From Candidatus Bathyarchaeota archaeon (lineage in GTDB: Archaea; Thermoproteota; Bathyarchaeia; RBG-16-48-13; JAGTRE01): 64,000 bases of DNA. Under the pieces are notes generated by a model. That model made no database searches and was not told where the DNA came from. It saw nothing but the letters and a program-made list of their open reading frames with translations. This document shows positions 23,218-56,886 of this stretch, piece after piece. A program made the position numbers and the translations under genes. The DNA is taken from positions 96,824 through 160,823 of the forward strand of contig JAGTRE010000002.1 in NCBI GenBank assembly GCA_018396415.1, written 5' to 3'. The first letter of the stretch is position 1. Each line of letters starts with the position of its first letter.

Positions 23218-24693
23218 CTACCTGTTTTCAGGTATTCCTGCGAGAATTTTTGCTAATTTCTTTTTGGCTTCTATGTTAGCTTGACGAGCGATCATAATTT
23301 TCTGCGCTTGAGGAGAACCTGCGCCGTGCATATCCTCTAGCAACCCTGTACCCATAGTCATATTTTCTATTAATCTAACGATACGCATCCTGTGTTCTGT
23401 GGGCACATCGGCCTTTCCTTTCAGATATTTCTCTACATATTTTCCCACGTCAGGACTTCGAAGATCGCGTTCTGAAGGCATTGTTCCAATTATACCACCA
23501 GTCAAATCTATTGCCAACCTAGCCATTTCAAATGGGAATCGAGTTACATTGAGTTTGGTAATGTTAGCGAGAAGTGGGTTAATGAAATAGGTCCCTGAGG
23601 GGAGCTTATACCCCTCGTAAGAGCAGGCTAAACTACCAGCATACAATGTTTCATTCAAGTGAATCATTTCAATTATTTTATCCCTTACGTGAAATGCATT
23701 TTCTACTCCATTATACTCGGCTATTGTCGCGGCAGCACCAATTAAAACGTCTCCAAGACCTACCTTGCACCCCCCATAGTTCTGCCTATGGTAACCCGCA
23801 AACCTTTCAACCAATTGCCCCGAGTATTCGTATTCCCCGCACATGAAAACCCTCTCCCATGGTACAAAAACTTCATCGAAGATGATTAAAGCTTCATGTC
23901 CAGCCACACCATAAGTGGCATTACCAACGTCCATCGTTAAGTCTTCGAGCTTTCGCGTATCATTTATCTGCCTTCCAATTATGTGGGTTATGCCTTCTGC
24001 ATCAGTGGGAATGGCAAATGAAACTGCGTAATCTTTGTCCTCCGAAGTCATCGACAATGTGGGCATAACAATGATCTCATGAGAGTTTATGGCGCCGGTT
24101 TGATGGGCTTTTGCACCCTTAACAACGATTCCATCCTCCCTTCGTTCAACAACATGCACAAATAGATCGGGATCAGCCTGCTGACTTGGCCTTAACCCCC
24201 TATTTCCTTTAACGTCAGTCATCCCCCCAACGCAGACCAAATCATTTTCTTGAACATACTTGAGAAAGGCATTAAAACGAGCATAATACTCAGTCCCGAG
24301 TTTCTGATCCATCTCATAGGTTACGCTTGAAAGCGCAAGCAAAGCATCTAAGCCAACGCACCGTTGGAAGCAACACCCTGTCTTCTGTCCTAGCAAACGT
24401 AGCATCTTCACCTTCTTAACCAGGTCTTCAGCACTCTGCGCAATATGGGTAAACCTGTTGATCTTCTTCCCTGTTAGATGCGATGTAGCTGTCATCAAAT
24501 CTGTGTATTCCGGATCGTGTGCTAAATCGTAGGTTAACTTAACAGCGTTTTGTGAGGGTTTAATAAATGGAAAGTCAACTGGGTTTTTGATTTTCTCTCC
24601 AAACATGTAAACATTCAAGTGAAGCTTCCTAAGGCTATCGATGTATTCTGACCCGGTTTTCAATTCACCTAACCTCCAAATCCAATTAACCAA
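23218..24693 (-). CDS. 4-hydroxybutyryl-CoA dehydratase / vinylacetyl-CoA isomerase-like enzyme (HpaB-family fold)
   Basis: 491 aa (AbfD is about 490); TGCCFQRCVG Cys pair matching the AbfD [4Fe-4S] CxxxC ligands; adjacent to crotonase, HBD and thiolase. Confidence 0.6.
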   Translation of the reverse strand: MVNWIWRLGELKTGSEYIDSLRKLHLNVYMFGEKIKNPVDFPFIKPSQNAVKLTYDLAHDPEYTDLMTATSHLTGKKINRFTHIAQSAEDLVKKVKMLRLLGQKTGCCFQRCVGLDALLALSSVTYEMDQKLGTEYYARFNAFLKYVQENDLVCVGGMTDVKGNRGLRPSQQADPDLFVHVVERREDGIVVKGAKAHQTGAINSHEIIVMPTLSMTSEDKDYAVSFAIPTDAEGITHIIGRQINDTRKLEDLTMDVGNATYGVAGHEALIIFDEVFVPWERVFMCGEYEYSGQLVERFAGYHRQNYGGCKVGLGDVLIGAAATIAEYNGVENAFHVRDKIIEMIHLNETLYAGSLACSYEGYKLPSGTYFINPLLANITKLNVTRFPFEMARLAIDLTGGIIGTMPSERDLRSPDVGKYVEKYLKGKADVPTEHRMRIVRLIENMTMGTGLLEDMHGAGSPQAQKIMIARQANIEAKKKLAKILAGIPENR

Positions 24694-24820: not shown

Positions 24821-25882
24821 TTGAGTTTTGAAAGTGTAAAATTTGGAATTTGCCCAAATCTCTATCCACTAGAATTAATCTATGAGGTGGCAGAATTCGC
24901 TGAGAAAATCGGATTAGATTCGGTAATGATGGGTGATCACCTAGTTGCCATAGGAATTAAAAGGCGAGAAGCACTAGAAGCATGGACTACATTAGCAGCA
25001 ATAGCGTCTAGAACGCACCGTATAAAATTGGGAACATGCGTTACGGATCCCCATAGACGCCACCCTGCAGTATTAGCTCAAACTGTAGCCACATTAGATA
25101 TAATTTCTAGTGGACGTGTCATCTTTGCGATTGGCCCAGGGGAAGCTATGAATTTGGATCCATATGGGATCCCATGGAATAAACCAGTCTCAAGAATGCG
25201 CGAAACAATCGAGATACTTAAAAAACTTTGGGTTGAGCAGTCAGTCAATTACACTGGAGAATTCTTTAAGCTTCAGGAAGCAACCCTTGAACCAAAACCT
25301 ATTCAAAAGCCTCATCCGCCAATTTGGATTGCCGGAATATCACCTAGAACGATGAAATTGACGGCTGAAATTGCAGATGGCTGGTTTCCGCTGCTCATAA
25401 CACCCGAACAATATAGAGCAGGATTAAACAACATTCGCCAGTTGGCAGAGCAAGTTGGAAGAAAGAGCGAAGACCTAGAACCAGCACTTTTTCTTTACAC
25501 GGTCGTGGCTGAAGACCGTGAAAAAGCACGCCAACTTATTGAGGTTCCCGCAAAAATGTTGCTAACCTTATTTCCCAAGAATCTGGCGAAGTTGGGCTAC
25601 AGTGCTCCGAAAGAGCTTAATGCCTCTAGTTTTATCGTTAAACCTGAAACAGTTAAAACGGTATTAGAAAAATCAACTACAATCCCATCTGAAGCTATTA
25701 AACAATTTTTCGTTTTCGGATTGCCTGATGATTGCATAGCAGGACTTGAAAAATACATAAAAGCGGGAGTCAGGTATTTTGCCTTGGCGCTACTGACGCC
25801 CCCACCGTTAACCATGGCGACGTTCAAGCTCTACGTAGAAAAGGTATTGCCATATTTTAGGGAGGACATACAGAGTAAATAG
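24821..25882 (+). CDS. Luciferase-like monooxygenase family, F420-dependent oxidoreductase type
   Basis: KFGI start, TIM-barrel LLM motifs; 353 aa. Confidence 0.7.
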   Translation: MSFESVKFGICPNLYPLELIYEVAEFAEKIGLDSVMMGDHLVAIGIKRREALEAWTTLAAIASRTHRIKLGTCVTDPHRRHPAVLAQTVATLDIISSGRVIFAIGPGEAMNLDPYGIPWNKPVSRMRETIEILKKLWVEQSVNYTGEFFKLQEATLEPKPIQKPHPPIWIAGISPRTMKLTAEIADGWFPLLITPEQYRAGLNNIRQLAEQVGRKSEDLEPALFLYTVVAEDREKARQLIEVPAKMLLTLFPKNLAKLGYSAPKELNASSFIVKPETVKTVLEKSTTIPSEAIKQFFVFGLPDDCIAGLEKYIKAGVRYFALALLTPPPLTMATFKLYVEKVLPYFREDIQSK

Positions 25883-25894
25883 AGTAAAACAAAA

Positions 25895-26338
25895 TCACCG
25901 AACCGGTTTTTCTTTCTTCCCAAGTATGAGAGAACGAAGAGCCACCCCGTTAACTGCGATTACCTGGTAGCGAACCCCGGGCAAGTCTCCGAATGCTCTT
26001 CCCCTAGGTCCTCCGATTCCAGTTATTAATACCTCGTCATGTTCATCAACAAAATTAAGAGCACCGTCACCAGGCAGAAAAGCAGTAACTTGTTTACCAT
26101 TCTTGATTAATTGTACCCTTACACATTTGCGCACAGCCGAGTTTGGCTGTCGACTTTCCACACCGACCTTTTCAAGAACTATCCCACGAGCCATTGGGGC
26201 GCCTTCAAGAGGATCTGCCTTGACATCCAACCCAAGCATTCGCCGCTTGAAATAGCGATATTTCCAGCGAAAGTGCTTTCGCTTCTTAATTAATTTTCTA
26301 GCCGCAAATTCCCCTTTTGGCGACTTTGTTCCAGTCAT
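25895..26338 (-). CDS. rps12: 30S ribosomal protein S12 (uS12)
   Basis: [28 protein letters not shown] is the canonical uS12 core; 147 aa. Confidence 0.9.
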
Positions 26339-26653: not shown

Positions 26654-27304
26654 ATGGCACTAAAATTATTGAGAAGAAAAGATGTTCGGCTCGCAGCGTG
26701 TTCTCTAGGTTTAATACTCTTAGCCGCTGGAGTGCTCATACCGCTTCAAACGCCAGTGACAGAGTCAAATACGATTATTGAGTACTCGTTTGTGCTTCGT
26801 GGCAGATGGTGGAAAGCATTTCCAGTTGATATTAATGTTGCCGGAAAGACGACTTATAAATTAACTGTAACATTTTCCTCGGATAATATAATTACAGCAG
26901 CAATTATAACCGATTCAACAATGTACACTATAACACATGATGTCCGCGCCTCAATCGTGTGTGAAGCATGGCTACCAAGTTCTAAAGGTGGTTCCTTTGA
27001 TTATGCCCCTAAACAATCTGGACGATACTGGATTTTCTTTGGCAATGTCCAACCCAGACAGGAATTGACTATTTCGCCGCCACGATTTGGACCCGGCTGG
27101 ATTGACCAAGTGAGTCAGATCATGTTCACCGTAAATGAAACATACACAATTTTGAGAAACATGATTAACTGGCCTCTGATGTGCGTCGGGATCCTAAGCC
27201 TATTGGTAAGTCTTGTAGGCTTTTTATCAAAGAGGAAAGTGGTTGAGCCCATAAAACCCCTCTATATTTGTGGTGAAAATCCAATGCTTACAAAAGCTCG
27301 TTGA
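26654..27304 (+). CDS. Hypothetical secreted/membrane-anchored protein (N-terminal and C-terminal hydrophobic segments)
   Basis: ORF with signal-anchor-like N-terminus and C-terminal helix; inserted between nusA and rps12. Confidence 0.35.
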   Translation: MALKLLRRKDVRLAACSLGLILLAAGVLIPLQTPVTESNTIIEYSFVLRGRWWKAFPVDINVAGKTTYKLTVTFSSDNIITAAIITDSTMYTITHDVRASIVCEAWLPSSKGGSFDYAPKQSGRYWIFFGNVQPRQELTISPPRFGPGWIDQVSQIMFTVNETYTILRNMINWPLMCVGILSLLVSLVGFLSKRKVVEPIKPLYICGENPMLTKAR

Positions 27305-27547: not shown

Positions 27548-27997
27548 TTACGTTATCACAACGTTGTCAATTTGGAAATATCGTTTAACAAGGAATCTGG
27601 TTCGCTCAGCAGTTTTTCCGTTTTTGCCGATGGCTACTCCTTTGTCTCTTGGTTCGACTATAACAACGGCGATCCGACGCCCATCTGGCCGATCAAGAAT
27701 TTGAATTTCCTTAACACGTGCAGGGGCCAAGCTGTTCTTAATGAATTCCGATGGAACATCAGCGTATTCAACGACTTCAATGTCACGCCCGGTCATTCGG
27801 CGGAGAAATTTAATATTTGCCCCACCTTTTCCAATGGCGAATCCGATGTCCCCGGGTTTTACGGTAAAGATCACGCGGTTCGACTTCTCGTCAATAATAC
27901 AATCCTTGGCAGTAGCTCCAGTGACACTTTCGAAAAGCGAGATGTATCGAATTTCGTCGCCAGTTAGCCTAATCTTGGACATCGCTTTCCTCCACAA
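27548..27997 (-). CDS. nusA: Archaeal NusA-like transcription factor (tandem KH domains)
   Basis: GFAIGKGGANIKFL and GVAIGKNGKTAE KH GxxG motifs; about 143 aa; true start likely the second Met (MSKIRL). Confidence 0.8.
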   Translation of the reverse strand: MWRKAMSKIRLTGDEIRYISLFESVTGATAKDCIIDEKSNRVIFTVKPGDIGFAIGKGGANIKFLRRMTGRDIEVVEYADVPSEFIKNSLAPARVKEIQILDRPDGRRIAVVIVEPRDKGVAIGKNGKTAERTRFLVKRYFQIDNVVIT

Positions 27998-28310
27998 GTT
28001 TTAAAATTTCAGAGTCACCCGGCTCGCGAATAGCCATTGCAGCAACCGTGAATACTTTACCGCAGGCTTCACCTAGATCAATGGAATTACCTTGGTAGAT
28101 GTAAACCGGAGTTTTAGATAGGCGAGCATAATACTCTATGTCCCCACGGATGGAAGGGGGACAGTTGGAAGCTAAAATAACGAGTTTCGCTTTTCCTATT
28201 CGCACCGCATCTATCGTCCGTTTTGAGCCAAGTATGACTTTTCCTGTTTGCACAGCTGTAATGATAGCTTTGTTTACGTCAATCACGTGATTGACCCCGT
28301 TAATTGGCAT
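27969..28310 (-). CDS. rpl30e: 50S ribosomal protein L30e
   Basis: GKVILGSKRTIDAVRIGKAKLVILASNCPP...VYIYQGNSIDLGEACGK matches L30e; 113 aa. Confidence 0.85.
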   Translation of the reverse strand: MPINGVNHVIDVNKAIITAVQTGKVILGSKRTIDAVRIGKAKLVILASNCPPSIRGDIEYYARLSKTPVYIYQGNSIDLGEACGKVFTVAAMAIREPGDSEILKLVEESDVQD

Positions 28311-28370: not shown

Positions 28371-31300
28371 TTAAGAGCTAACTGGAGGTTTTGATAATTT
28401 TTCCTCGGTTTTTCCTTCGATTTTTTGAGGGGGAGACATATAAATGTCTATTGCCCCTGTTCCAACCGGCACCATTTGCCCGACTATAATGTTCTCGGCA
28501 ACACCTTTCAGCGGATCCGTCGCCCCTTCAGCAGCGGCTTGAATGAGATTTGGAACAGTAATTTCAAAGGCAGCCTTAGCCAGAACACTTGCCTTTTCAC
28601 CGCTCACTCCGTGTCGACCAATTTGCCGAACCTCTCCGGTACAAGTCATTGCATCGGCAACAAGCATCACATGCCGAATATCTACGTCAAGCCCTTGTTC
28701 TTCTAAAACGCTTAAAGCTTCTTTAATAATGGCATTGCGAGCGGCTTCGATTCCGAGAGTTTCAGCAATTTCGTGAATATGGTTAGTAGTTGTTCGAGTT
28801 GGGTCTACGCCTGGAACTTTGAGGACCCGCTGAAGGTTTGACCCGTCTGTATGGATTACCCACTCGCCATGTTCTTCGGTAACAAGCACCCTATGGATTC
28901 CCGGTATTCCTTTAACGTGAATTGCTGAGATTTTGTCACTAAGTTTACGAATATCGATGGCTACTATCTCTTTTGGTGTAATTGTGATTGTATCGCGTTC
29001 AATTTGAACATCACAATTTGGAATATGAAGAATGGCTCGAAGATCGTTAACAGCAACGCCGCGATCCCTCATCATAGCTCGATCCAGCATGACAACAACA
29101 GCCCCTAACTTCGGGTCAATATATATGGATTGGGCAAGGTCTTCCAAAGTAGTGAAGATAATTTGCTGGGCTACCTCCGTGGCTTTCTCCCGGCTTACCC
29201 TATGTTTTTTGTCTAGGTAGATATTCATAATCGGAGTTGAAGGAGTTCGTCGCGCATCGACAATTTCGATGAGACGTGGAAGACCAAGAGTGACATCCCT
29301 CTCTTTAACTCCAGCGTAGTGAAATGTCCTTAAGGTCATTTGTGTACCAGGCTCTCCAATTGATTGCGCTGCAATAATTCCAACAGCTTCGCCGGGTTCA
29401 ACGAGGGCGCGCTTATAATTCTCTACAGCCAACGAAAGAACGGTATCAACCGCTTCCCTATTTAACTTCGCACTGAGTATAGTTTTGCGTAACTCTTTCA
29501 CTAATAATGGAGTTAATTGATCAGCAATTTCGTTTAATCGCTTTTCTACGTATTCTGCAGATGCAGCTCTTCCACCTTCCATGGAAATTCGTATTCGCTC
29601 AACGAGACGGTCAACGTTTACCGCCTTTCCATGATCACTCTTCGCTGGATCGACACCGTCTTCTCCGTAGCGGAATTGGATAATATCACCCCTTGAGTCC
29701 CTGACGGTCCCATCATACTCAACACGTAGATACTCTAAGGCATTAATTAATCGTCTTTGCATGTATCCGCTTTGTTGAGTGCGTACTGCGGTATCAACGA
29801 GTCCTTCACGCCCGCCCATAGCATGGAAAAAGAATTCAATAGGATTCAGCCCATCTCGGTAAGATGAAACTACGAAACCCCTCGCCCCCGGGCTGGGATC
29901 CCCAACAGGGAAATGCGATAACGCTCTATCACGATATCCTCGAATAATTCTTTTTCCACGTACAGATTGTTGCCCAACGCAGGCAGTCATTTGGCTGATA
30001 TTCAAGGTTGACCCTCGAGCTCCGGTCCGAGTCATTATAATTCCCTGATTGTCCATTCCGAAAAAGGAGTCAGCAGCTTCCCCTGCCTTATCCCGAGCAT
30101 TTGCCAACTCATTCATGATATAAATTTCTAGCGACTCTTCAATGGTTTGACCTGGAAGACGTGGAAGAGTTCCTTTTCGATAAGCTTCAATTAATCCCTG
30201 AACACGCTCTTGCGTAGCTTGAATAACACGGTTTATTTTATGCTGCGTTTCTTTGGAAAGGTCGAGTTCATCAAGGCTATACGTGAAGCCACGCATCGAC
30301 ATGAACGCGTTTACAAGTTTGCAGATTGACCTGAGAAACGATTGACCTGCACTGGTCCCATAATCCTTGACAATTCGATGGTATAGGCTTTCAGATCTCT
30401 CTGCCCCAATAGAATTTTTGTCAATTACTCCACATTCGAGTATTCCATCTCTGATAACGACATACGCATCATATGGACACTTCTCTTTTAGACAGTTAGC
30501 ACATTGTCGGCAGGTATTCGCTTTGAGGACATAATTGAAACCCTTTGGCAGGAAAAGACTGAAAACCTGTTTTCCAGTCCAACGTGGCGAGGGTTTCTTT
30601 ATAAATGGCTTGGGCAGTTGACCCTCGTAGCCCGCGGCTGTAACAAGCCTAGAAACCTCATCCTTCGTGAGGAGAGTCGTATTGTTAGTAAGTAAATATG
30701 CAGCGGTGATAAAATCTCTGATCGCTCCGATGATTGGTCCCCCATATCTTGGAGAGAGGATTTGATCTTGAACTTGCATCAAGAGGCGGGCTTCAGCCTG
30801 TGCTTCCTCGCTTTGGGGAATATGAAGGTTCATCTCATCCCCATCAAAATCTGCGTTATAAGGCGGGCAGACACAGAGATGAAGTCTAAAAGTCTTGTAG
30901 GGAAGAACTTTAACATAGTGAGCCATGATTGACATTCGATGCAAAGATGGCTGTCGATTAAAAATCGCAATATCTCCATCCCGAAGATGCCGTTCAACGA
31001 TAAAGCCTGGTTGAAGAGATTCTGCGACTTTTTCCCTTTCTGCAACAAATTCAAGACGAATTCGCTTCCCATCTGGTCGAACTACATATAAAGCTCCCGG
31101 ATAGTTTTGAGGGCCGGCGATAACTAGTTGCTTCATCTGGTCTAAATTCCATTGAGTAACTTTCTCGGGCACTGTCAAACGCATTGCAACGTCAATTGGG
31201 ACGCCGACCTCGTTTATATCGAGGTTCGGGTCAGGAGAAATCACTGTTCTAGCGGAGAAATCAACTCTCTTCCCTGATAAATTACTCCGAAATCTACCTT

Positions 31301-32234
31301 CCTTTCCCTTAAGGCGCTGAGAAAGAGTCTTTAACGCCCTACCGGACCGGTGCCTGGCTGGAGGAATTCCAGATGCTTCATTGTCAAAGTATGTCGTTAC
31401 ATGATATTGAAGCAACTCAGATAGGTCTTGAATGATTAGAGTTGGTGCACCGGCATCAATATTCTCCTTTAACCGTTGATTAATTCGAATTATGTCAACA
31501 AGTTTATGAGTTAAATCGTCTTCAGACCGAATTCCCGATTCGAGAGTAATTGATGGTCTTACATATACAGGTGGAACAGGAAGAACTTGAAGGATCATCC
31601 ATTCAGGACGAGCGACCGTTGGATCAAATCCAACTAAGCGTAGATCATCGTCGATAATTCGCTCAAGCCGCTCTCGAATCATACTAGGAGTTAGCCTACG
31701 AGCCCCGCCATCCTCTAAAACCTCATAAAAAGTAGTAGGTTTGCTGAATTCCACTACATATTGCCCAGCACCGCAATGCGGACATTCTGAACACTTCTTT
31801 GCTTCACGAATAACTTGCTCGTATAAAACCTCTGGAACAGAGCCTAATTGGGCCTTAATCTCTTCAATCCGTAAGCGAAATTCATTAATTTTTGCATCGG
31901 TTAGGAGAATTCGACCACAATTTCGACATGTTGCAGTAAGAAGCGCATAAATAAGTTTGGCAAAGCCAACATGAACAACTGGCACAGCCAATTCGATATG
32001 ACCGAAATGCCCGGGGCAGCGGGCGGCAGTATTTCCACAGGTTTTGCATCGTTGCCTCGGCTCCAATGTTCCAAGGCGCCCATCCATCAATCCAGAGGTA
32101 ATTGGAGCCCCATCTTCATCATAGGTGTCCGCAGTCTGAACCTCTACCACAGAAAGTTTTCGGATATCGTTTGGTGAAAAAATTCCAAACTTAATAGCAT
32201 CTATGACTTTGTAAAGCTCAGCCTCCATCGCCAT
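28371..32234 (-). CDS. rpoA: DNA-directed RNA polymerase subunit A as a single 1287-aa polypeptide (A' and A'' portions contiguous, no intervening stop)
   Basis: N-terminus carries A' zinc-binding region ([20 protein letters not shown]); [10 protein letters not shown] active site; residues about 880 onward are a typical A'' ([29 protein letters not shown] trigger-loop region) ending with the A'' C-terminus. Confidence 0.9.
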   Translation of the reverse strand: [1287 protein letters not shown]

Positions 32235-32235
32235 T

Positions 32236-35200
32236 TTACGCCCGCTCCTTCAACTTCAGTTTTGGAAAAATACACAGGCTCATCAACTCCTGTAAGAGAA
32301 GCTTAAATGCATACGACATTGTCACCGCAGAAATCTCTGCCACGTCGCCGCAGATTTTGCAGAGATACTTACGCTGCTTCAAATCATAATATGCAACAGA
32401 GCCGCATCGCTCGCAGACATAAATCACGCATTTATCCGACTCCTCAAGAAGTCTATCCTTTAGAAGCATTGCCGCCCCATGACCAATAAGACAATCCCGC
32501 TCCATTTCGCCAAACCGTAGCCCACCACCTCGAGCCCTACCCTCAGTTGGTTGTCGAGTTAACATCTGGACTTGCCCTCTGGCCCGAGCATGCATTTTAT
32601 CCGAGACCATGTGGTGGAGCTTCTGGTAGTAAACGATCCCGATGAAAATATCAGCGGAAAACTTCTCGCCAGTCGTTCCATTATACATTACTTCCCGCCC
32701 ACTGTGTTGGAACCCCATTTCCAAAAGTGCCTTACGAATTGCTTCCTGCTTTTCGTTAGCAAAGGGAGTCCCGTCAACGAAGACCCCTTTCAAGGCAGCG
32801 AGCTTGCCAGCGATCGACTCGATAAATTGCCCTATAGTCATCCGCGATGGGATGGCATGTGGGTTAATGATTATATCTGGCACGATCCCATCTTCGGTAA
32901 AGGGCATATCCTCCTGTGGAATGAGCATCCCAATAACTCCTTTCTGCCCATGGCGAGAAGCAAACTTATCTCCAAGCTCTGGCACCCGAAGGTCGCGGAC
33001 CCTAACTTTTACAAGCTTACTCCCTTGAACGGATTCCGTGACAAAAACTGCGTCAACAATGCCAACTTCTGCCGGCCTCATACTAATCGATGTGTCTCTC
33101 CGCGTCAGACCCTTTACTTCAAATTCCTTGTACTCTTCTAGGAATCTAGGCGGACTTGTTCGCCCAATTAGAACGTCCCCCCCGCTTACTTCTGCTTCTA
33201 CGCCAACTATTCCATCCTCTTCAAGCAGGCGGTAGTACTGCTCGCCACGATAACCACGAGTTCCAGGCTCAGAAATCTCAAATTTATCTTTAAGTCCGCC
33301 GAGGTATTGGCGGCATTCTGCTTCATAAACGCGGTAGAATGTTGACCGCTCAAGCCCTCGATCAATTGAAGACTTATTGAAGATTAGGGCATCCTCCATG
33401 TTATATCCCTCGAACGACAGAACTGCAACGACACAATTCTGACCAGAAGGCCGCTTGTCGTAACCAATGACGCTCATTGGATCAGTTCGAACTAACGGGA
33501 CCTGAGGATAGTGAAGAAGATGAGCGCGTGAGTCGACTCGATTAAAATAATTAGTGGCGTATACGCCCAGAGCTTGCTTTGCCATCGCCGCCTCATAGGA
33601 GTTTCGGGGAGATTGATTATGTTCAGCGTAGGGAATCAGTGATGCGCAGATTCCAAGAATTGTGCATGGCGCGATTTCCAAGTGAGTTGTATCTTTATTA
33701 ATTTGAGCAACTGACAAAGCAACATACGCATTTTCCTCTTCCTCTGCGTCGAGGTATTCAACAATACCTTGCTTGACTAGATCTTCCCATTTAAGCTCTC
33801 CAGACCGAATTCTTAACACATGCTCTGGTTTCAACTTGGGTTCGCCGTTTTCCACTATAATAAGTGGGCGGCGAACTCGACCAGCATCGCAATTCACATA
33901 GATTTCGTGAGATAGCCGATTTTGCAAACCACTAACAAAATGTGCAATATTAATTTCCGAACTTAATTCGCCTCTCCGGCGCATTTCGCGAACTTCTCTA
34001 ATCAAACGATATGGATCGGTGCAATAGCCAATTAAACGCCCATCTACAAACAGCTTCGCTCCCGACCCTCGCAAATCGGTGTCCGCTTCGTGCACCGGTG
34101 TGACACCAAGTCGATAGAGAATGCGTTCAACTTCCTCGGGATTGATATAAACTGAGCTACAGGCCATTAAAGCAAGGTTTTTAACCAAACCACAATTTGA
34201 ACCCTCGGGTGTCTCGTTTGGACAGAGGCGCCCCCAATGAGTAGGATGCAGATCTCTCGCCTCAAAGTTTGGTTGGCTTCGGCTTAACGGTGATTGTAGA
34301 CGTCTTAGGTGGCTCAGGGTGGAGGTAAAGTTTGTTCGATCCAAAATTTGAGTGATCCCGACTTTTCCCCTCCCCCAGTTTCCAGTGGCAAGCGCATGCT
34401 GAATCCGCTCAGTAATTATGCCGGGACGAATAGCTGCAGAAATTACCCCCGTCCCATGACGCCGAATACTCATTCGCTCAAGTTGATACTTTACATCTCG
34501 ACAGAGGTTTCTAAACGCAATCCGAAACAGATCAGCAAGTAACGGTCCAGCAAGTTTAAGCCGCTTGTTCGCGTAGTGATCCTTATCGTCGGGCTTACGA
34601 CGCCCCAACTTTAGTTCAATAACTCGCGCCGCCATTTCTCCAAGGTAAAGTGCTTTTTCACGACGCTTATCCGACGTACGCCCGATATGCGGCATGAAGT
34701 TTTTGTCTAGTATTGCTTCAGCTTTCCGAATTCGATACTCTTCAATTTGCCCGTGAGCAACCCTATTTCCAATGAAGAGAATTGCATCTTGAACTGTTAT
34801 TATACCAACCGCTTTCTCAAATGAGGGGTCCAATCGCTCCTGAATTTCCTTATCAAGAGACACGGCATCAGCGATCATCTTATCGGATTCTAACCCGAGG
34901 GCACGCATCAAAATAGCAAACGGAATTTCCGTTGGAATCCCAGGCATTGATACATATAATGCTTCATCGGATTTCATTCGAAGTTCAATTCTCGCTCGGA
35001 ACCCAACTGTTGTGGAAAAAACCTTCGCCCGATAGATCGGAGTGCTTCCACTATCATCGATGTCAACTAATATCCGGTTTGGTGCCAAATCCTCTAATGC
35101 AACAATCACCCGCTCAGAACCATTAACTATAAAGTAACCACCTGGGTCATTTGGATCCTCTCCAACCTCAATCAACTCTTCTGGAGACCTATTTGACAGG

Positions 35201-35604
35201 GGACAAAACTCCGACTTCAACATTATTGGCAAATCGCCTATGTAAACCTGCTCGGTTGACCCCTCTTTCCCATCCCTAACCTCTGAAACTTCCAAGAACA
35301 TTGGCGCAGCATACGAAAGATTTCTAAGCCTTGCCTCCATCGGATAAATTGGATGATCTGAACCGTCAACCTCAACAACCCTCGGCCTTCCAACCTCAAC
35401 CTTTCCAAGCTTAATTTTAAACATGAAATCAGGAATCTCGATTGGAATCTCTCCAACTTCATTCACGATTTCTTGAAGACCCCGTTCCACAAATTCATTA
35501 TAAGAGTCGAGATGTTGCCGAACCAGCCCTTTCTCACGGAAAAAGGCCTCCATTAGGGGCCACAAATCATAATCAGATAAGGCCATAGTATTATTGACCT
35601 CCAT
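32236..35604 (-). CDS. rpoB: DNA-directed RNA polymerase subunit B (unsplit)
   Basis: 1122 aa single ORF with all Rpb2 conserved blocks (GEMERD, C-terminal Zn ribbon CxxCG...CxxC). Confidence 0.95.
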   Translation of the reverse strand: MEVNNTMALSDYDLWPLMEAFFREKGLVRQHLDSYNEFVERGLQEIVNEVGEIPIEIPDFMFKIKLGKVEVGRPRVVEVDGSDHPIYPMEARLRNLSYAAPMFLEVSEVRDGKEGSTEQVYIGDLPIMLKSEFCPLSNRSPEELIEVGEDPNDPGGYFIVNGSERVIVALEDLAPNRILVDIDDSGSTPIYRAKVFSTTVGFRARIELRMKSDEALYVSMPGIPTEIPFAILMRALGLESDKMIADAVSLDKEIQERLDPSFEKAVGIITVQDAILFIGNRVAHGQIEEYRIRKAEAILDKNFMPHIGRTSDKRREKALYLGEMAARVIELKLGRRKPDDKDHYANKRLKLAGPLLADLFRIAFRNLCRDVKYQLERMSIRRHGTGVISAAIRPGIITERIQHALATGNWGRGKVGITQILDRTNFTSTLSHLRRLQSPLSRSQPNFEARDLHPTHWGRLCPNETPEGSNCGLVKNLALMACSSVYINPEEVERILYRLGVTPVHEADTDLRGSGAKLFVDGRLIGYCTDPYRLIREVREMRRRGELSSEINIAHFVSGLQNRLSHEIYVNCDAGRVRRPLIIVENGEPKLKPEHVLRIRSGELKWEDLVKQGIVEYLDAEEEENAYVALSVAQINKDTTHLEIAPCTILGICASLIPYAEHNQSPRNSYEAAMAKQALGVYATNYFNRVDSRAHLLHYPQVPLVRTDPMSVIGYDKRPSGQNCVVAVLSFEGYNMEDALIFNKSSIDRGLERSTFYRVYEAECRQYLGGLKDKFEISEPGTRGYRGEQYYRLLEEDGIVGVEAEVSGGDVLIGRTSPPRFLEEYKEFEVKGLTRRDTSISMRPAEVGIVDAVFVTESVQGSKLVKVRVRDLRVPELGDKFASRHGQKGVIGMLIPQEDMPFTEDGIVPDIIINPHAIPSRMTIGQFIESIAGKLAALKGVFVDGTPFANEKQEAIRKALLEMGFQHSGREVMYNGTTGEKFSADIFIGIVYYQKLHHMVSDKMHARARGQVQMLTRQPTEGRARGGGLRFGEMERDCLIGHGAAMLLKDRLLEESDKCVIYVCERCGSVAYYDLKQRKYLCKICGDVAEISAVTMSYAFKLLLQELMSLCIFPKLKLKERA

Positions 35605-35609
35605 GAGGG

Positions 35610-35864
35610 TTATCCCTCAATTACATATCGATAGGCAATTGCCTCGCCAGCCGTAGGACTTTTTCTAATAATTTTCACAATGTCTCCCGGCTTCGCTCCA
35701 ATCGCCTTTGCAGCCGGATCAGATTCCAAAATATAGGGCAATTGATTTGGTGCAATTCTGTACAGCTTTAGCAGCTCTTCAACTTCTCTCTTATTTAGCA
35801 AAATGTGTTTCGGCACCAGCTCATGTTCAAATAAGTCGAGTTTGCTTTCTTTTTCCTCAGTCAA
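35610..35864 (-). CDS. rpoH: DNA-directed RNA polymerase subunit H (Rpb5 homologue)
   Basis: 84 aa, HELVPKHILL...GDIVKIIRKSPTAGEAIAYRYV matches RpoH. Confidence 0.85.
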   Translation of the reverse strand: MTEEKESKLDLFEHELVPKHILLNKREVEELLKLYRIAPNQLPYILESDPAAKAIGAKPGDIVKIIRKSPTAGEAIAYRYVIEG

Positions 35865-36090: not shown

Positions 36091-36235
36091 TGGCGGGCCC
36101 GGCGGGAATTGAACCCGCGACCCATCCCCAGGGAGAGGTGAATCATCATCCCTTCCGGGTGTCCTCCGAGCTCGGATAAAAGCCTCACCGAGAGATTTTC
36201 TCCCCGGTGCTCTATCCTAGCTGAGCTACGGGCCC
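36091..36235 (-). tRNA. Intron-containing tRNA (about 70-nt intervening sequence); anticodon not resolved
   Basis: Minus-strand RNA: GGGCCCG-TA-GCTC-AGCTAGGATA-GAGC ... GCGGG-TTCAATT-CCCGC-CGGGCCC-G-CCA. Acceptor, D-arm and T-arm are canonical and CCA is encoded. The anticodon region is interrupted by about 70 nt containing hairpins; exon junctions could not be fixed by eye. Confidence 0.6.
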
Positions 36236-37470: not shown

Positions 37471-37563
37471 GGGCCCGTGGCCTAGTTGGATAAGGCGTCG
37501 GCCTTCGGACATTTCGATTTGGAAGAGAGCCGGAGATCGAGGGTTCAAATCCCTCCGGGCCCG
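37471..37563 (+). tRNA. tRNA-Arg (anticodon TCG) with a 19-nt intron at the canonical 37/38 position
   Basis: GGGCCCG-TG-GCC-TAGTTGGATAA-GGC-G-TCGGC-CTTCGG[ACATTTCGATTTGGAAGAG]A-GCCGG-AGATC-GAGGG-TTCAAAT-CCCTC-CGGGCCC-G; CCA not encoded. Confidence 0.75.
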
Positions 37564-37947
37564 CTATAGTTAGAGACGCAAATATTAAGCGATGGTACAA
37601 AACCTTGCCCTAACAGCCCCGTTAGGGTTGAGGTATTTTCTTTCTACCTCATTCACGTAATCGATGAAGTTGTAACCTCTCTTTTCTCTATACTTTAAAT
37701 TTAGTTTGGGGTAGTTTTTAGAATTTATCTCAGGAATATAAAACGCTCTAGAGCTGGGGCTAAGGCATTGTTCGTTCTTTCCATTCTATTCCAAACGGTC
37801 ATCTAAAACCTCTAATCTCCGCGCCCATTCTTTGAGAAACGCGCTTGCTTGGGATATTCCTTTATTCAAATGCCTGCGACGCGTTAATTCATAAGAATTT
37901 ATCCGGGCAAAATTTATATCGTGGGCTTTTTGTCTTCTCCATTGGTT

Positions 37948-42189: not shown

Positions 42190-42299
42190 TGGCGGGCCTG
42201 ACGGGATTTGAACCCGCGACCTACAGCTTTCCCCAGAGGCTATAGGAGGCTCGGCTGATCTGGTCATCTGCCGCGCTGTCCAAACTGCGCCACAGGCCC
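42190..42299 (-). tRNA. Intron-containing tRNA (about 32-34 nt extra); anticodon not resolved, intron probably non-canonical
   Basis: Minus-strand RNA GGGCCTG-TG-GCGC-AGTTTGGACA-GCGC-G-...-AGGTC-GCGGG-TTCAAAT-CCCGT-CAGGCCC-G-CCA. Intervening region contains hairpin GGCAGAT-GACCAG-ATCAGCC; no U33-containing loop is found at a canonical position. Confidence 0.55.
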
Positions 42300-42941: not shown

Positions 42942-44390
42942 TTAAACCTTCACAACTTCAAGATTTGCGGCAAACTCTTTACTGGGCTCCTCTAATTCAC
43001 GGATACAGCCAGGATCTGGTGCCAGATAGTCTTTGTAGTATCCATAAGCCCTAGCTCTACAACCCCCGCATATATACATATACTGGCAATGTCCACATCG
43101 TCCCTTTAGATTTTCACGCCTCCGTAAATCCGCTAGAACAGGCGAGTTAAGCCAGATTTCTTTAAAGCTCTGGGTTTTAAGGTCGCCAACAGCAATTGGC
43201 ATAAAAACGCATGGCGTGACCAAACCGTTTGGCTCAATTGCACAATAAATCCTCCCCGCACCGCATCCACCTAGGAAGTCAGCTAGATATTTGGTTTTAC
43301 CGGATAAGTTGTACGCAGCAAAGTGAGTGGGTGCTGTCAAATCTTTATTTTCCTCCAAGGCCTTTTGCATACATACTCTTGCATACTGTGGTGCAGTACA
43401 AAACGTTTGGATTTCACCCTTGGTCAATTCGTTATATAAATATTCGAGGAGATGTTCCCGTTCAACAGGGGATATATCAAGACTTACTATCTCAGACCCG
43501 CGGCCAGCGGGAATAAAGTTGAAGACTACCACTCGTTTAACTTTGAGCCTTTTACCCAACTCTACAATATCGGGGATGCTATGAATATTATGCTTGGTCA
43601 CGGTTACAGCGATACATGTATAAATGTCCTTTTCAATTAAGTTACGAATACCCTCAACTGCTCTTTCGAAACAGCCAGGAACCCCACGAAAGGCATCGTG
43701 GACCTCTGGAGTTGCACCGTCAAGACTCACCTCTACATAACCTATATCGGCTTCTCTTAATTTCGTAGCCATCGCCTTTGTTACCATAGTCCCATTGGTA
43801 GCTACAGAAACGTAGATCCCTTTCTTGGCTGCATACCCGGCAACGTCTAAAAAGTCTGAACGGAGAAACGGTTCACCCCCCGAGAAAGCTAGGGAAACGA
43901 CGTTTTCCTGATCAAGTTCATCTACGATTTCTTTTCTCTTCTCCGTTGGAAGCTCGTCATATGAAAGTTCCCCCGCATTTTGGTAACAATGCTTGCACCT
44001 TAGGTTACATGCGTTTGTGTAATTCCATACAACGAGAAAGGGAGCTCCAGCGGTCTGAGGCTTATTGATTCCAAAGGTAGCTATCCCAGATAGAACATTG
44101 GCTATTCCCCGTTTGACATAGGGGTCGCGAAGAGCTCTCCTTAACTGTTCACCGGTTATACCGAATGCTTTGCCACCGTTATTGAGAGCCCGATTAACAG
44201 CTATTGAAACAAGTTTTGCAGAGAGACAACGGTGTTTTCCTTTTCCTTCGTTGAAATAATCGTCAAGCGCCACTTCTAAATGCGTTTCTCCACATTTAGG
44301 ACATATTTTACTTGCTGATTTTATTACTGCTCTGATTATAGGATTATTTACAACGGATAGAAACGTATATACTTCTTCTGTCATCGGCAT
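42942..44390 (-). CDS. Radical SAM / SPASM-domain enzyme with an about 110-aa N-terminal extension containing a zinc ribbon
   Basis: CNLRCKHC (CxxxCxxC) radical SAM cluster; C-terminal Cys-rich SPASM region (CxxCxxxxxC...CGGC); N-terminal CPKCGETHLEV; 482 aa. Confidence 0.7.
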   Translation of the reverse strand: MPMTEEVYTFLSVVNNPIIRAVIKSASKICPKCGETHLEVALDDYFNEGKGKHRCLSAKLVSIAVNRALNNGGKAFGITGEQLRRALRDPYVKRGIANVLSGIATFGINKPQTAGAPFLVVWNYTNACNLRCKHCYQNAGELSYDELPTEKRKEIVDELDQENVVSLAFSGGEPFLRSDFLDVAGYAAKKGIYVSVATNGTMVTKAMATKLREADIGYVEVSLDGATPEVHDAFRGVPGCFERAVEGIRNLIEKDIYTCIAVTVTKHNIHSIPDIVELGKRLKVKRVVVFNFIPAGRGSEIVSLDISPVEREHLLEYLYNELTKGEIQTFCTAPQYARVCMQKALEENKDLTAPTHFAAYNLSGKTKYLADFLGGCGAGRIYCAIEPNGLVTPCVFMPIAVGDLKTQSFKEIWLNSPVLADLRRRENLKGRCGHCQYMYICGGCRARAYGYYKDYLAPDPGCIRELEEPSKEFAANLEVVKV

Positions 44391-45584: not shown

Positions 45585-48500
45585 TTAATTAGAATTTGCT
45601 GCTTTTTTAAAACATCGTTTACATCGGATAACCGGGAAAAGTAGTTTACGAGTGCGAATGAGGCAGTCAGAGCAAGCTTTTGCACCGCAATGTGGACAAA
45701 CACTTATGTGTTGACGACATACAATTTTACCACAAACCTCACATCGCTGCGAACAAGCAGCACATAAAATTTGACCGCACACTGCACATGTATACTTTCC
45801 TTCCTTGATACAATAGGTCGTACCACACGTCGGGCAGCTCCAAGAATCTGGTTTACAAACCTTAAGTCCACAGATATTACATACAACAAGGCATTTCTCA
45901 CAATTCATTTTTCCACAGATTGGGCATTGCACAAGAAGCGACGGGCATACCTCCCTTTTGCACGTAACACAGGGGGTTAAGTGCCTTTGAAAATCCTCCC
46001 GACAAAAAACCTTTCCACACCCTACGCAAACAATCTTGTCTTCATCGCAAATTGGGATAAGACAGGTTTCACAAAAGGCTGATGGCAAAGTTTCAAGCAG
46101 TTTATGACAGGTTTTACAATATCCAAAATCTCCACTTCCGGTAAGCCCATTCCAAGTGATGGTGAAGGATTTTCGGAAATCGCCTCGTGAGACTTCCAGC
46201 TTAGCAGAAAACATCGGAATCCAAATTAGTTCAAAAATTGTGACATCAACTTCTCCGCGTTTAGGTTGAATTTCTCGGGCTTCAATTTCAACTGATTCTA
46301 AGGTTTTAATTTCGGCGTTTAACGCGGTTAATTTCATATCCCTTTGGCGAATAATTCCTTTAATCTTAGCCTCGAGGGATAGAATCTCTTGTTGTAATTT
46401 TCGAATATCGACATGCATGGTTTGGCGGCGAAGTTTTCTTGCCTCAATTTGATCGCGTAATCGAGTTACCCCGCGACCCTCACGTTTCACCTTTTTAATC
46501 CGATCGTTTAATTCTTGAATCTCACGATCAAGAGTTTGAATAAATCGAGTTTTAGCGGTGAGTTCCTCTTGCCGTCGCTCCAAATTACGACGAATAGATG
46601 CAACAGTCCTTTCAAACGCTTCTTCGATTTTCATAGCTCGCTTTCGCTGGATCTCGGCAATTGTTCTACGAATTTCCTCTCGAAAGTTATTGAAAGCTTC
46701 TCCAGGCGTGGAGAAGCGATCTAATAACGGATGATAGTAAACAGGTCTCACGGTCTTTTTCATAGTATATAATTCAAACTGTTTTTTCACAGCTTCAACT
46801 TTCAACCGATCTTTTAGACGAAAGTTAATTGGTGCAAACCTAGCTTTTTCAACCGGTTGCGTATCAAAAGGTTTACGAGAAACATCGGCAACTGTCACGC
46901 CATAGGCACTTTCACTGTCCCAGTCAAATGAGTTCTCACATGCGAGGAGGAGACGCCGGATTTGTTCAGAATATTTTACCTTGGGGGAAGCCCGATTTAT
47001 TCTGACTATGGCTTCGCAGTATAGGGCAGGACAGTAGGTTAGCGTAGACTCGGATAAATCAAAATTAAGTTTGGGCGTTCGATTTCGAAGTTCTTGAATA
47101 ATCCAATCCGTTCCTTTTTGAAGAGTAATATAAAATTGGGGTAAAGCCTCGGGTAAAACCGGAATAGGGGTGGTAGCATACGCAACTGAAGGCTGTGCTA
47201 GCGCCGATATCTCGGGCAGTTTAGTTGTTGGTTTAACGATTAAATCTTTGAGGCGCTCACGCTGAAGGGTGGTAATTTCCCTTACTTCATCCTTTGTTAA
47301 TGGCCCCCTATGATACACCATTAGGTGGCGAGTTGCAAAAATAATTGGGCTTGTTTGTTTTGCACTATGCAAGACAAAGAGTCTGGCCCGAAGCGAAGTA
47401 ATAATCCGGTCAAGAGCCTTCTGATCAAGCGCAACGCCTTGCTCGGAGAAAACGGTTGAGAGCCCTTCTAGAACTCGCATTCGATCCCGACTTGTTTGGA
47501 GTTTTCCAATGATCCAAATTCCACAATTGGATAACGCTTTATAATCAACATCCACTGGATTCTGGGTAGCAAGAATATTTCCTAGTCCAAATGCGCGTCC
47601 CTGCTTAAGAAGTAAAGTTAGCGGTCGCTTCGTGGGTGGTGTATATGGATGGGGAGGCAGATAACCGTAAATTTCGTCGAAGTAGAAGAGATATTTTACT
47701 GTTGGTGAGCCGGGCTGAGTGATCATCCAACCGAATAATTGCCATAAAAGTAAAGTAACGAAAAAGTGCCGCTCCCGCTCATCAAGATGAGCTACGTAAA
47801 AAATGGAGACTCGTGGCTTTTTCTCCCCTACACCAAAGAAGAAGCCAATGTCAAGTGGCATCCCCTTAACCCAACTTTCAAAGGAGGGTGAGGCGATAAT
47901 CTTGTTTAAGTCTACGGCTAATCTCTGCCGCTCCTCTGGGGTAACAAACGTATCAACCTCGATTACTCCCAACTGAGTGAAGGGGGGATTTCGAACAAAA
48001 CCGATTAACATCGGGATATCTAAGCCTTGACTATTCCGCCACGCGTGCTCAATTACATTTGAAATCAATATATGTTCCTTGCTCTTTACTGGATCCGACT
48101 CATGACCAATCATATCTAACAGAGCTGAAGCGACGTCGCGGATTCTCTCCCGCAGTATTTCCGCATCTCGGTCCCAAGACAAGCCAGCTGGCACTTGAAG
48201 CGTCTGAAGAATTGAAACTGGGATGCCCGCATCGCTTCCCGGTGTAAAAACAAGAATGTCTGCAACTTCCTTTAATTTACGGACTTTCTCCTGGGTTATC
48301 CCCCATTTAGCAAGTCCCTCACGCCATGATTCAGCGACCTCTTTGGCATATTCTTGAACACTCTTTCCGTGTCGCCGTGCCTCATCTAAACTGACCCATC
48401 GTTCGAAATCCTCTGATCGCAACTCCGGAAAAGCTAACATCAAGTTAGTTAAGTCGCCCTTCGGATCAACAAGAATAGCTGGAATCCCTTGAAGAATTGC

Positions 48501-48698
48501 CTCTTCAAGAAGCACAAGGCAAGCGCCTGTTTTCCCTGAGCCGGTCATTCCGAGAACCATGGCATGAGTGACCAAGTCGGCCCTGTCAATATAAACTGGT
48601 TCTTTGGAGACTTCCAATGTTTTTTCATCTACTTGGCGCCCAACATAGAAAAGATCTTCTCGAATACTTTCCTGAGGAGGTGTCGGAGATGAGGACAT
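45585..48698 (-). CDS. Large multidomain protein: N-terminal HerA/FtsK-superfamily (DUF87/AAA_10-like) P-loop ATPase, central coiled coil, C-terminal array of about 8-10 tandem CxxCGxxxC zinc ribbons
   Basis: Walker A LGMTGSGKTGA near residue 45 followed by DPKGDL; long heptad-rich segment (IRRTIAEIQRKRAMKIEEAFERTVASIRRNLERRQEEL...); C-terminal 180 aa with repeated C-x2-C-G-x3-C units (CVGCGKVFC, CPICGKMNC, CNICGLKVC, CPTCGTTYC, CAVCGQILC, CEVCGKIVC, CPHCGAKAC). Confidence 0.6.
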   Translation of the reverse strand: MSSSPTPPQESIREDLFYVGRQVDEKTLEVSKEPVYIDRADLVTHAMVLGMTGSGKTGACLVLLEEAILQGIPAILVDPKGDLTNLMLAFPELRSEDFERWVSLDEARRHGKSVQEYAKEVAESWREGLAKWGITQEKVRKLKEVADILVFTPGSDAGIPVSILQTLQVPAGLSWDRDAEILRERIRDVASALLDMIGHESDPVKSKEHILISNVIEHAWRNSQGLDIPMLIGFVRNPPFTQLGVIEVDTFVTPEERQRLAVDLNKIIASPSFESWVKGMPLDIGFFFGVGEKKPRVSIFYVAHLDERERHFFVTLLLWQLFGWMITQPGSPTVKYLFYFDEIYGYLPPHPYTPPTKRPLTLLLKQGRAFGLGNILATQNPVDVDYKALSNCGIWIIGKLQTSRDRMRVLEGLSTVFSEQGVALDQKALDRIITSLRARLFVLHSAKQTSPIIFATRHLMVYHRGPLTKDEVREITTLQRERLKDLIVKPTTKLPEISALAQPSVAYATTPIPVLPEALPQFYITLQKGTDWIIQELRNRTPKLNFDLSESTLTYCPALYCEAIVRINRASPKVKYSEQIRRLLLACENSFDWDSESAYGVTVADVSRKPFDTQPVEKARFAPINFRLKDRLKVEAVKKQFELYTMKKTVRPVYYHPLLDRFSTPGEAFNNFREEIRRTIAEIQRKRAMKIEEAFERTVASIRRNLERRQEELTAKTRFIQTLDREIQELNDRIKKVKREGRGVTRLRDQIEARKLRRQTMHVDIRKLQQEILSLEAKIKGIIRQRDMKLTALNAEIKTLESVEIEAREIQPKRGEVDVTIFELIWIPMFSAKLEVSRGDFRKSFTITWNGLTGSGDFGYCKTCHKLLETLPSAFCETCLIPICDEDKIVCVGCGKVFCREDFQRHLTPCVTCKREVCPSLLVQCPICGKMNCEKCLVVCNICGLKVCKPDSWSCPTCGTTYCIKEGKYTCAVCGQILCAACSQRCEVCGKIVCRQHISVCPHCGAKACSDCLIRTRKLLFPVIRCKRCFKKAANSN

Positions 48699-50451: not shown

Positions 50452-50545
50452 TGGTGGACCGGGCGGGATTCGAACCCGCGACCCCTTGGTCTTTTGAGAA
50501 AGCCCATGCAAACCAAGTGCTCATACCGAGCTGAGCTACCGGCCC
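50452..50545 (-). tRNA. tRNA-Ala (anticodon TGC) with a 16-nt intron at/near 37/38; G3-U70 present
   Basis: Minus-strand RNA GGGCCGG-TA-GCTC-AGCTCGGTAT-GAGC-A-CTTGG-TTTGCA[TGGGCTTTCTCAAAAG]A-CCAAG-GGGTC-GCGGG-TTCGAAT-CCCGC-CCGGTCC-A-CCA. Confidence 0.85.
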
Positions 50546-56744: not shown

Positions 56745-56886
56745 AGCGGGGTGGGGTAGCAAGAGAGGACAATGAAGTCCCTCTTGCCGAACCAGGTTTA
56801 ATGAGTACTTGTAGTGAACAAGCCTCGAATTCCCCGCAGGGCTCATAACCCTGAGATCGGTGGTTCAAATCCACCCCCCGCTACCA
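56745..56886 (+). tRNA. Initiator tRNA-Met (anticodon CAT) with about 62 nt of intervening sequence inside the D-loop (non-canonical)
   Basis: A1-U72 (AGCGGGG.../...CCCCGCT-A-CCA); anticodon arm CAGGG-CTCATAA-CCCTG with three G-C pairs (initiator hallmark); T-arm GGTGG-TTCAAAT-CCACC. D-stem GGGG/CCCC encloses TAGC + about 62 extra nt with hairpins AAGAGAGGA/TCCCTCTT and CTTG-TAGTGAA-CAAG. Confidence 0.7.

Follow-up and report, generated by a model that had tools for sequence, protein, structure and literature searches.

Gene organization of the locus

The window, a stretch of 64,000 nucleotides from a 492-kb contig of a Bathyarchaeia metagenome-assembled genome (MAG), carries on its minus strand a complete gene for the largest subunit of RNA polymerase, rpoA (rpo1), as a single ATG-to-stop open reading frame of 1287 codons according to both the ORF list and the translation (Table 1). 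The strand of this reading frame had been left unstated in the initial annotation. Directly upstream lies rpoB, with 1 nt between its stop codon and the start codon of rpoA, and the cluster opens with rpoH, while genes for an L30e-like ribosomal protein and a NusA-like KH-domain protein are found on the downstream side. The rpoA gene is probably transcribed within this conserved rpoH-rpoB-rpoA-L30e-NusA cluster. In the public record, the L30e-like product is 104 aa long.

Table 1. Positions of rpoA, its parts and the neighbouring genes in the window
Feature	Position	Strand	Size or residues	Basis or remark
Ribosomal protein S12	25895..26338	-		PF00164, 1.4e-47
Archaeal NusA-like KH-domain protein	27548..27997	-		KH_2 and NusA-like KH_5 matches; KH_NusA_2nd in public record
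Gene for an L30e-like ribosomal protein, 3' of rpoA	27969..28310	-		PF01248, 7.6e-24
rpoA (rpo1), complete largest RNA polymerase subunit	28371..32234	-	1287 aa + stop	ORF list, translation, Pfam, NCBIfam
A'' (Rpo1C)-equivalent part	28371..29558	-	893-1287 + stop codon	solved Rpo1C/A'' chains, TIGR02389
A'/A'' junction	29550..29594	-	~881-895	sense codons throughout
A' (Rpo1N)-equivalent part	29562..32234	-	1-891	solved Rpo1N/A' chains, NF006336, TIGR02390
Catalytic Mg-binding motif (10 residues)	30828..30857	-	460-469	intact
rpoB (rpo2), unsplit	32236..35604	-	1122 aa	Pfam Rpb2 domains 1-7 in one ORF
rpoH (Rpb5 C-terminal domain homologue)	35610..35864	-		PF01191, 2.3e-31; first in rpoH-rpoB-rpoA cluster

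The initial annotation had described both large subunits as unsplit, rpoA without division into A' and A'', and had seen in this a eukaryote-like arrangement of two large subunits; all of this was borne out, given that Rpb2 domains 1-7 reside in one rpoB reading frame adjoining the fused rpoA. Eukaryotic or bacterial contamination was rejected on the grounds that the best structure matches are archaeal Rpo1N and Rpo1C chains, that the operon is of the rpoH-rpoB-rpoA-L30e-NusA type and that the contig belongs to a Bathyarchaeia MAG.

The rpoA product

The single rpoA chain contains Pfam Rpb1 domains 1-5 in order, with the match to domain 5 (PF04998) spanning residues 795-1216. The protein scores above the curated cut-offs of all the NCBIfam equivalogs for A' and A'', A' being recognized by NF006336 (1388 bits versus a cut-off of 819, residues 6-882) and TIGR02390 (1379.1 versus 1042.55 bits, residues 9-878), and A'' by TIGR02389 (469.5 versus 420.65 bits, residues 907-1266). 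The chance of an open frame of 1287 codons is approximately (61/64)^1287, or roughly 1e-27, if 3 stops are assumed among 64 equally likely codons. The protein is identical to NCBI entry MEM2850438.1 from a Bathyarchaeia MAG (GCA_038851825.1), and one gene of 1287 aa is likewise called in the public record.

The motif at residues 460-469 includes NADFDGD, the universal active-site aspartate triad motif, and its intactness fits a functional enzyme. Residues 801-830, a block of 30 positions that corresponds to the bridge helix, are 97-100 % conserved among 131 homologues. With both the NADFDGD motif and the bridge-helix block in place, the rpoA product has the sequence features of the largest subunit of a multisubunit RNA polymerase and is predicted to be catalytically competent. 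The C-terminus consists of a short tail that ends about 10-20 residues past the A'' homology and contains no repeats.

The A'/A'' junction

The position of the junction was mapped with the aid of solved split subunits. Rpo1N/A' chains (880-910 aa) match rpoA residues 7-891 from end to end, Rpo1C/A'' chains (391-397 aa) match from residue 893 or 895 to residue 1268 or 1277, and the two sets of alignments abut within about 2 residues. The boundary thus falls at 29550-29594, in agreement with the region around 29560-29640 in which it had been expected, and the reading frame is open throughout, with no stop, frameshift or gap at the canonical split site, as had been claimed. The motif of 31 residues quoted in the initial annotation as the A'' N-terminus is indeed typical of early A'', but it occupies residues 946-976 (29307-29399), some 55-60 residues downstream of the boundary, and hence is not the very N-terminus.

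The summed lengths of A' and A'' in solved enzymes are 880+392/395 and 906-910+391-397 aa, and the 1287 aa of rpoA fall between these sums, which indicates that rpoA holds no linker or insert. A linker, an intein and an insertion at the junction were accordingly ruled out by the length of the protein together with the abutting alignments. The junction opens a stretch of low conservation (residues 881-940), and Met885, encoded by ATG, sits exactly at it.

Fused and split rpoA among relatives

The initial annotation had left open whether close relatives share the fusion, and they do. The 90 %-identity cluster of rpoA comprises sequences from NCBI, JGI, ENA and Logan, and an open junction of the same sequence was found in 13 of its 14 other members. 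All of the best 120 database homologues have an uninterrupted junction, a length of 1268-1294 aa and the five Rpb1 domains; where organism names are given, they are mostly Bathyarchaeia or Bathyarchaeota, with one Nitrososphaerota and one Thermoproteota. At the DNA level, the frame is open across the junction in 72 of the 78 related, junction-crossing loci from species-representative genomes, a fused-to-split ratio that does not represent an unbiased frequency, the 80 loci examined being the best-scoring of at least 598. Except for a few genomes of Nitrososphaeria, the relatives compared are MAGs or assemblies from environmental samples.

The loci with an open frame cover identities of 54-73 % overall and belong to Bathyarchaeia (64-73 %), Nitrososphaeria (55-59 %) and Aigarchaeota, while at the protein level rpoA of the window is 64-79 % identical to other Bathyarchaeia sequences and 54-59 % identical to those of Nitrososphaeria and Aigarchaeota. 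Every locus examined from these three lineages is fused, and the junction occupies the same alignment position with no lineage-specific linker; its codons vary by lineage yet stay sense. The remaining six loci, labelled Hadarchaeota, Hodarchaeota and Methanosarcinales, served as split controls and have an in-frame stop aligned to rpoA residues ~885-888. Their A'' start lies 0-4 codons from the A' stop and in the same frame, although these loci were picked by same-frame alignment, which may have biased the sampling. As judged from this distribution, the unsplit rpoA is a trait of the lineage rather than an event on a single contig.

The unsplit state is also a matter of published record: tables from 2010-2011 onwards give it for Thaumarchaeota, Aigarchaeota and Korarchaeota, and for Bathyarchaeota it was noted in 2017. 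An RpoA 'fusion' in Caldiarchaeum (Aigarchaeota), Thaumarchaeota and Korarchaeota was listed by Nunoura et al. 2011 (Table 1 therein; PMC3082918), the fused RpoA of Thaumarchaeota was restated by Zhalnina et al. 2014 (PMC4084955), and Da Cunha et al. 2017 (PMC5484517) described the 'A-type' and mentioned 'fused Thaumarchaea and Bathyarchaea sequences'. The assertion of the initial annotation that nearly all described archaea have the split form leaves out whole lineages that, according to these three reports, have the unsplit form as a rule, so that the eukaryote-like arrangement of rpoA and rpoB is real but not rare. The rpoA split is not mentioned in an Asgard diversity preprint, in a survey of archaeal gene fusion and fission (PMC11237513) or in a reconstruction of ammonia-oxidizing archaea (PMC7554672).

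Comparison with known RNA polymerases

The rpoA of the window resembles the unsplit 'A-type' RpoA of Thaumarchaeota/Nitrososphaeria, Aigarchaeota (Ca. Caldiarchaeum), Korarchaeota and Bathyarchaeota in being a single gene for ~1270-1290 aa with an adjoining unsplit rpoB and the same junction position. It differs from them in nothing of kind and constitutes one more Bathyarchaeia sequence, already deposited. The split A' (Rpo1N) and A'' (Rpo1C) of Euryarchaeota and Crenarchaeota (2pmz, 2waq, 4qiw, 8cro) are collinear with it and share its operon context and total length, but they are two genes and two polypeptides, with a stop and restart where rpoA has sense codons (~885-888).

In eukaryotic Rpb1, RPA1 and RPC1, both halves are likewise held in a single polypeptide. 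Blocks flanking the junction align well between Rpb1 (808-878 and 1029-1124) and rpoA (796-866 and 916-1011), whereas the segment between them extends over about 150 residues in Rpb1 and about 50 in archaeal rpoA. In the domain nomenclature of Pol II, this longer segment is part of the 'foot' domain. Neither the expanded segment nor the heptad-repeat CTD of Rpb1 is present in the archaeal protein, whose best PDB matches are archaeal. Bacterial beta' (RpoC) is also a single chain and can be aligned across the junction region, but it is far more distant (TIGR02386, 389.8 versus a cut-off of 963.5) and differs in its lineage-specific insertions and operon context.

Origin of the unsplit rpoA

The locus almost certainly represents an ordinary Bathyarchaeia rpoA, unsplit as is normal for the lineage, in which A' and A'' are joined in one polypeptide with no added linker; because it derives from a Bathyarchaeia MAG, it displays the normal state of that lineage. 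In Bathyarchaeia, the largest subunit would be made as one polypeptide of ~1280 aa, with an estimated mass of roughly 140 kDa, just as it is in Nitrososphaeria/Thaumarchaeota, Aigarchaeota and Korarchaeota, and it probably shares its architecture with A'+A'' and Rpb1. The junction would then form a continuous, poorly conserved segment linking the bridge-helix block to the conserved block that opens the A'' core. The fused and split forms may differ by a single codon, a stop followed by an in-frame start within 0-4 codons taking the place of sense codons. No functional difference between fused and split enzymes is needed to explain rpoA, and no sequence evidence against its reading as an ordinary fusion was found.

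One alternative is that Bathyarchaeia descend from a split ancestor and lost the stop independently of Thaumarchaeota and Korarchaeota. Such a re-fusion would be mechanistically easy, as little as one in-frame stop separating the two states, and one secondary fusion in Archaea, that of Pacearchaeota, is accepted by Da Cunha et al. (PMC5484517). Nevertheless, the fused state with the same junction position and no lineage-specific linker, common to all Bathyarchaeia, Nitrososphaeria and Aigarchaeota loci examined, makes re-fusion unlikely, and a single shared state would be more parsimonious than several independent fusions.

Considerably less probable is a gene that is fused in the DNA but yields two polypeptides, either by internal initiation near Met885 or by proteolytic cleavage in the variable junction. 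The location of an ATG exactly at the junction and the poor conservation of the segment would suit this scheme, but Met885 is not conserved, since other Bathyarchaeia have VAGKG, AKGGV or NMKKG at the junction and P0001 has Ile, so internal restart at this residue is unsupported. Moreover, no obvious Shine-Dalgarno-like purine run was seen by eye upstream of the ATG, and we know of no precedent for a fused rpoA giving rise to two polypeptides.

Finally, an assembly or sequencing artefact, by which a base error would have removed a stop or restored the frame between truly split genes, could in principle mimic a fusion, as the same-frame arrangement of the six split loci illustrates, but it has next to no likelihood and was rejected in view of the open junction in the cluster members from four sources, in the best homologues and in the 72 related loci, the lineage-dependent sense codons and the same state in published genomes (PMC4084955, PMC5484517, PMC3082918).

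Implications for the use of rpoA as a character

Whether rpoA is split or fused has served as a rare genomic character in discussions of the archaeal root and the origin of eukaryotes (PMC5484517), and the idea that lineages with the split gene branched later is cited in PMC4084955. As the states differ only by an in-frame stop and a nearby start, it is conceivable, though doubtful, that they interconverted several times in Archaea and that the Bathyarchaeia fusion is an independent secondary event. If so, rpoA would say less about where the archaeal tree is rooted or which archaeal lineage eukaryotes are tied to. The locus in the window, whose state is known for the lineage and whose sequence is already public, adds nothing new to this debate. 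Because a single in-frame stop can separate split from fused, claims of either state that rest on a single assembly need to be checked against relatives.

Full-length fused proteins are labelled "subunit A'" by NCBI and JGI. This label hides the fusion, and A'' could consequently seem absent in marker-gene surveys.

Gene organization and position of the junction

In this genome, the largest RNA polymerase subunit is encoded by a single ATG-to-stop frame of 1287 codons, and translation of the entire frame revealed no internal stop. The Rpb1 domains 1, 2, 3, 4 and 5 (Pfam) are ordered along the one protein, and the catalytic motif is complete (residues 460-469), which bears out the description of rpoA in the initial annotation as one ORF with A' and A'' unsplit. 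Only 1 nt separates the rpoB stop codon from the rpoA ATG, and the gap between rpoH and rpoB is 5 nt; the three polymerase genes are thus tightly packed (see table). The usual order in archaeal operons puts S7, EF-2, EF-1alpha and S10 after S12; in the window, conservation of the cluster breaks off at S12, the next genes encoding a luciferase-like monooxygenase and an HpaB-like hydroxylase. The otherwise conserved rpoA-L30e-NusA-S12 cluster is also interrupted by an opposite-strand ORF of 216 aa, which has no match in Pfam, NCBIfam or PADLOC and is likewise called in the public record as a gene without a family.

Features of the window (nt, window coordinates)
Feature	Position	Strand	Remarks
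HpaB-like 4-hydroxyphenylacetate 3-hydroxylase	23218-24693	-	after S12
Luciferase-like monooxygenase	24821-25882	+	next gene after S12
S12	25895-26338	-	further downstream of rpoA
216-aa ORF	26654-27304	+	between NusA-like gene and S12
NusA-like KH protein	27548-27997	-	downstream of rpoA
L30e-like gene	27969-28310	-	downstream of rpoA
rpoA	28371-32234	-	A'/A'' boundary at 29550-29594
rpoB	32236-35604	-	directly upstream of rpoA; 1122 aa; Rpb2 domains 1-7 in one ORF
rpoH	35610-35864	-	upstream of rpoB
tRNA match	36094-36235	-	Rfam
tRNA match	37471-37564	+	Rfam; ARAGORN anticodon ambiguous, 4-base
tRNA match	42193-42299	-	Rfam
Radical-SAM/SPASM protein	42942-44390	-	~1.2 kb from 1037-aa protein
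1037-aa protein	45585-48698	-	short N-terminal HerA/FtsK/TraD-type P-loop match only
tRNA match	50452-50545	-	Rfam
tRNA match	56811-56876	+	Rfam; score 29.2 vs gathering 29; model positions 7-64 only

A Protein Data Bank sequence search aligned residues 7-891 essentially end to end with Rpo1N/A' chains of 880-910 aa (Saccharolobus/Sulfolobus, Thermococcus and Pyrococcus), and residues 893/895 to 1268/1277 with Rpo1C/A'' chains of 391-397 aa. A second search, with the 216 residues around the boundary as query, agreed: the A' chains terminate opposite residues 881-891, and the A'' chains begin aligning at about their own 8th-11th residue, opposite residues 893-895. The boundary therefore falls at residues ~881-895, within the interval predicted earlier (29560-29640). 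The 31-residue motif quoted earlier for a typical A'' N-terminus does belong to the A'' part, but occupies residues 946-976, some 55-60 residues in. The NCBI curated equivalog models for both subunits score above their cut-offs on the one protein, those for A' (NF006336, 1388 bits versus 819; TIGR02390, 1379 versus 1042.55) covering residues 6-882 and that for A'' (TIGR02389, 469.5 versus 420.65) covering residues 907-1266. An added linker, intein or insert at the junction is ruled out, because the 1287 aa lie between the A'+A'' sums of solved enzymes (880+392/395 and 906-910+391-397).

Conservation of the fused state

Close relatives share the fusion. The identical protein has been deposited as MEM2850438.1 (contig JAWCKP010000001.1, 492,446 bp; GCA_038851825.1), a record that also calls rpoA as one 1287-aa gene. 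The 90%-identity cluster comprises 15 members from NCBI, JGI/IMG, ENA and Logan assemblies, the full-length ones being 1279-1287 aa; the same uninterrupted junction was found in 13 of the 14 others, the motif search having failed in the remaining member (P0131). The best 120 matches in a database of 5.8 billion proteins are all 1268-1294 aa long with five Rpb1 domains, and those with an organism name are mostly Bathyarchaeia/Bathyarchaeota (one Nitrososphaerota, one Thermoproteota). Among the best 80 of at least 598 loci from species-representative genomes, each of the 80 checked for frame continuity, 78 reach the junction and 72 read through it without interruption. These include Bathyarchaeia (64-73% identity to the window protein), Nitrososphaeria/Thaumarchaeota (55-59%; Nitrososphaera, Nitrosopumilus, Cenarchaeum and Nitrosocaldus among them), an Aigarchaeota MAG, Ca. 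Geocrenenecus, and unclassified Thermoproteota and Nitrososphaerota. An assembly artefact is rejected as the cause of the fusion, given the open junctions in both the cluster and the genome scan.

Fused rpoA genes 65-68% identical to the window protein also occur on contigs DATKOK010000090.1, JBLNCY010000047.1 and QMPS01000169.1 of public MAGs labelled 'Methylomirabilota bacterium', 'Methanocella sp.' and 'Aquificota bacterium', respectively; the contigs in question are probably Bathyarchaeia DNA that was binned wrongly.

The six split loci, which act as internal controls (L034, L041 and L063, labelled Hadarchaeota; L065, Hodarchaeota; L072 and L075, Methanosarcinales) align in the same frame across the junction, yet their stop-to-stop ORFs reach only 880-902 aa. 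In the junction alignment, their stop codon stands opposite window residues ~885-888, with a same-frame Met 0-4 codons later, whereas all sequences from Bathyarchaeia, Nitrososphaeria and Aigarchaeota carry sense codons at this point. Fused and split genes therefore differ here by as little as one codon, and one substitution would fuse split genes, or split a fused gene given an available start. As frequencies, both the 72:6 ratio and the same-frame pattern carry a sampling bias, since the split loci were found through one high-scoring same-frame alignment and genomes with A'' in another frame would rank lower.

Alignment with 130 full-length homologues gave a mean identity to the window residue of 0.74. 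Residues 801-830, the bridge-helix block, and 941-1000 score 0.86-1.00 (save one decade at 0.74), and residues 881-940 drop to 0.44-0.58; the junction thus marks the start of a variable stretch that connects two almost invariant blocks. The equivalent blocks of eukaryotic Rpb1 (808-878 and 1029-1124) lie ~150 residues apart, compared with ~50 in the window protein, the intervening Rpb1 segment being part of the 'foot' domain (Pol II nomenclature).

The gene, with one frame and all defining domains and motifs conserved across a large clade, would yield a single polypeptide of an estimated ~140 kDa, predicted to join Rpo2 and the small subunits in just the way that A'+A'' does. The variable junction would form a continuous connector within the chain, and the fusion need have no functional consequence. 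Production of two polypeptides, by cleavage or from an internal start, is improbable given the lack of conservation of Met885 among other Bathyarchaeia.

Relation to the published record

The fusion, together with the unsplit rpoB, is a real eukaryote-like arrangement, as first proposed, but it is not exceptional. The table of Nunoura et al. 2011 (PMC3082918) gives 'fusion' for the RpoA of Ca. Caldiarchaeum subterraneum, Thaumarchaeota and Korarchaeota and 'split' for that of Crenarchaeota and Euryarchaeota; the authors note that RpoA "is not fragmented as in eukaryotes". A single rpoA was reported in all Thaumarchaeota by Zhalnina et al. 2014 (PMC4084955), who cite a proposal that the split lineages branched later, and Da Cunha et al. 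2017 (PMC5484517) describe an 'A-type', refer to fused sequences from Thaumarchaea and Bathyarchaea, and report a secondary fusion for Pacearchaeota. The arrangement is thus already known, neither rare nor new, and the window rpoA is a member of this class in every feature tested. The literature already debates whether the unsplit state goes back to the ancestor or evolved repeatedly, a question on which a single locus does not bear.

Full-length fused proteins are named "subunit A'" by NCBI and JGI, evidently as a result of the A' model giving the top score; of the names listed for the database matches and the cluster, a single one (Bathyarchaeota B26-1) reads "subunit A'/A''". Under such names the fusion is hidden, and surveys that go by name could take A'' to be missing from these lineages.

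Other features of the window

Four of the five Rfam tRNA matches, at 91-142 nt, greatly exceed the model's 71 positions and suggest tRNA genes with introns, of a kind common in TACK archaea. Only two of the matches were recovered by ARAGORN. Most of the 1037-aa protein is without a family match apart from its N-terminal P-loop and weak PADLOC matches to mad8, HerA and LmuB (best 7.9e-14). The radical-SAM/SPASM protein moderately resembles prokaryotic viperin models (88 bits), perhaps owing to generic radical-SAM similarity.
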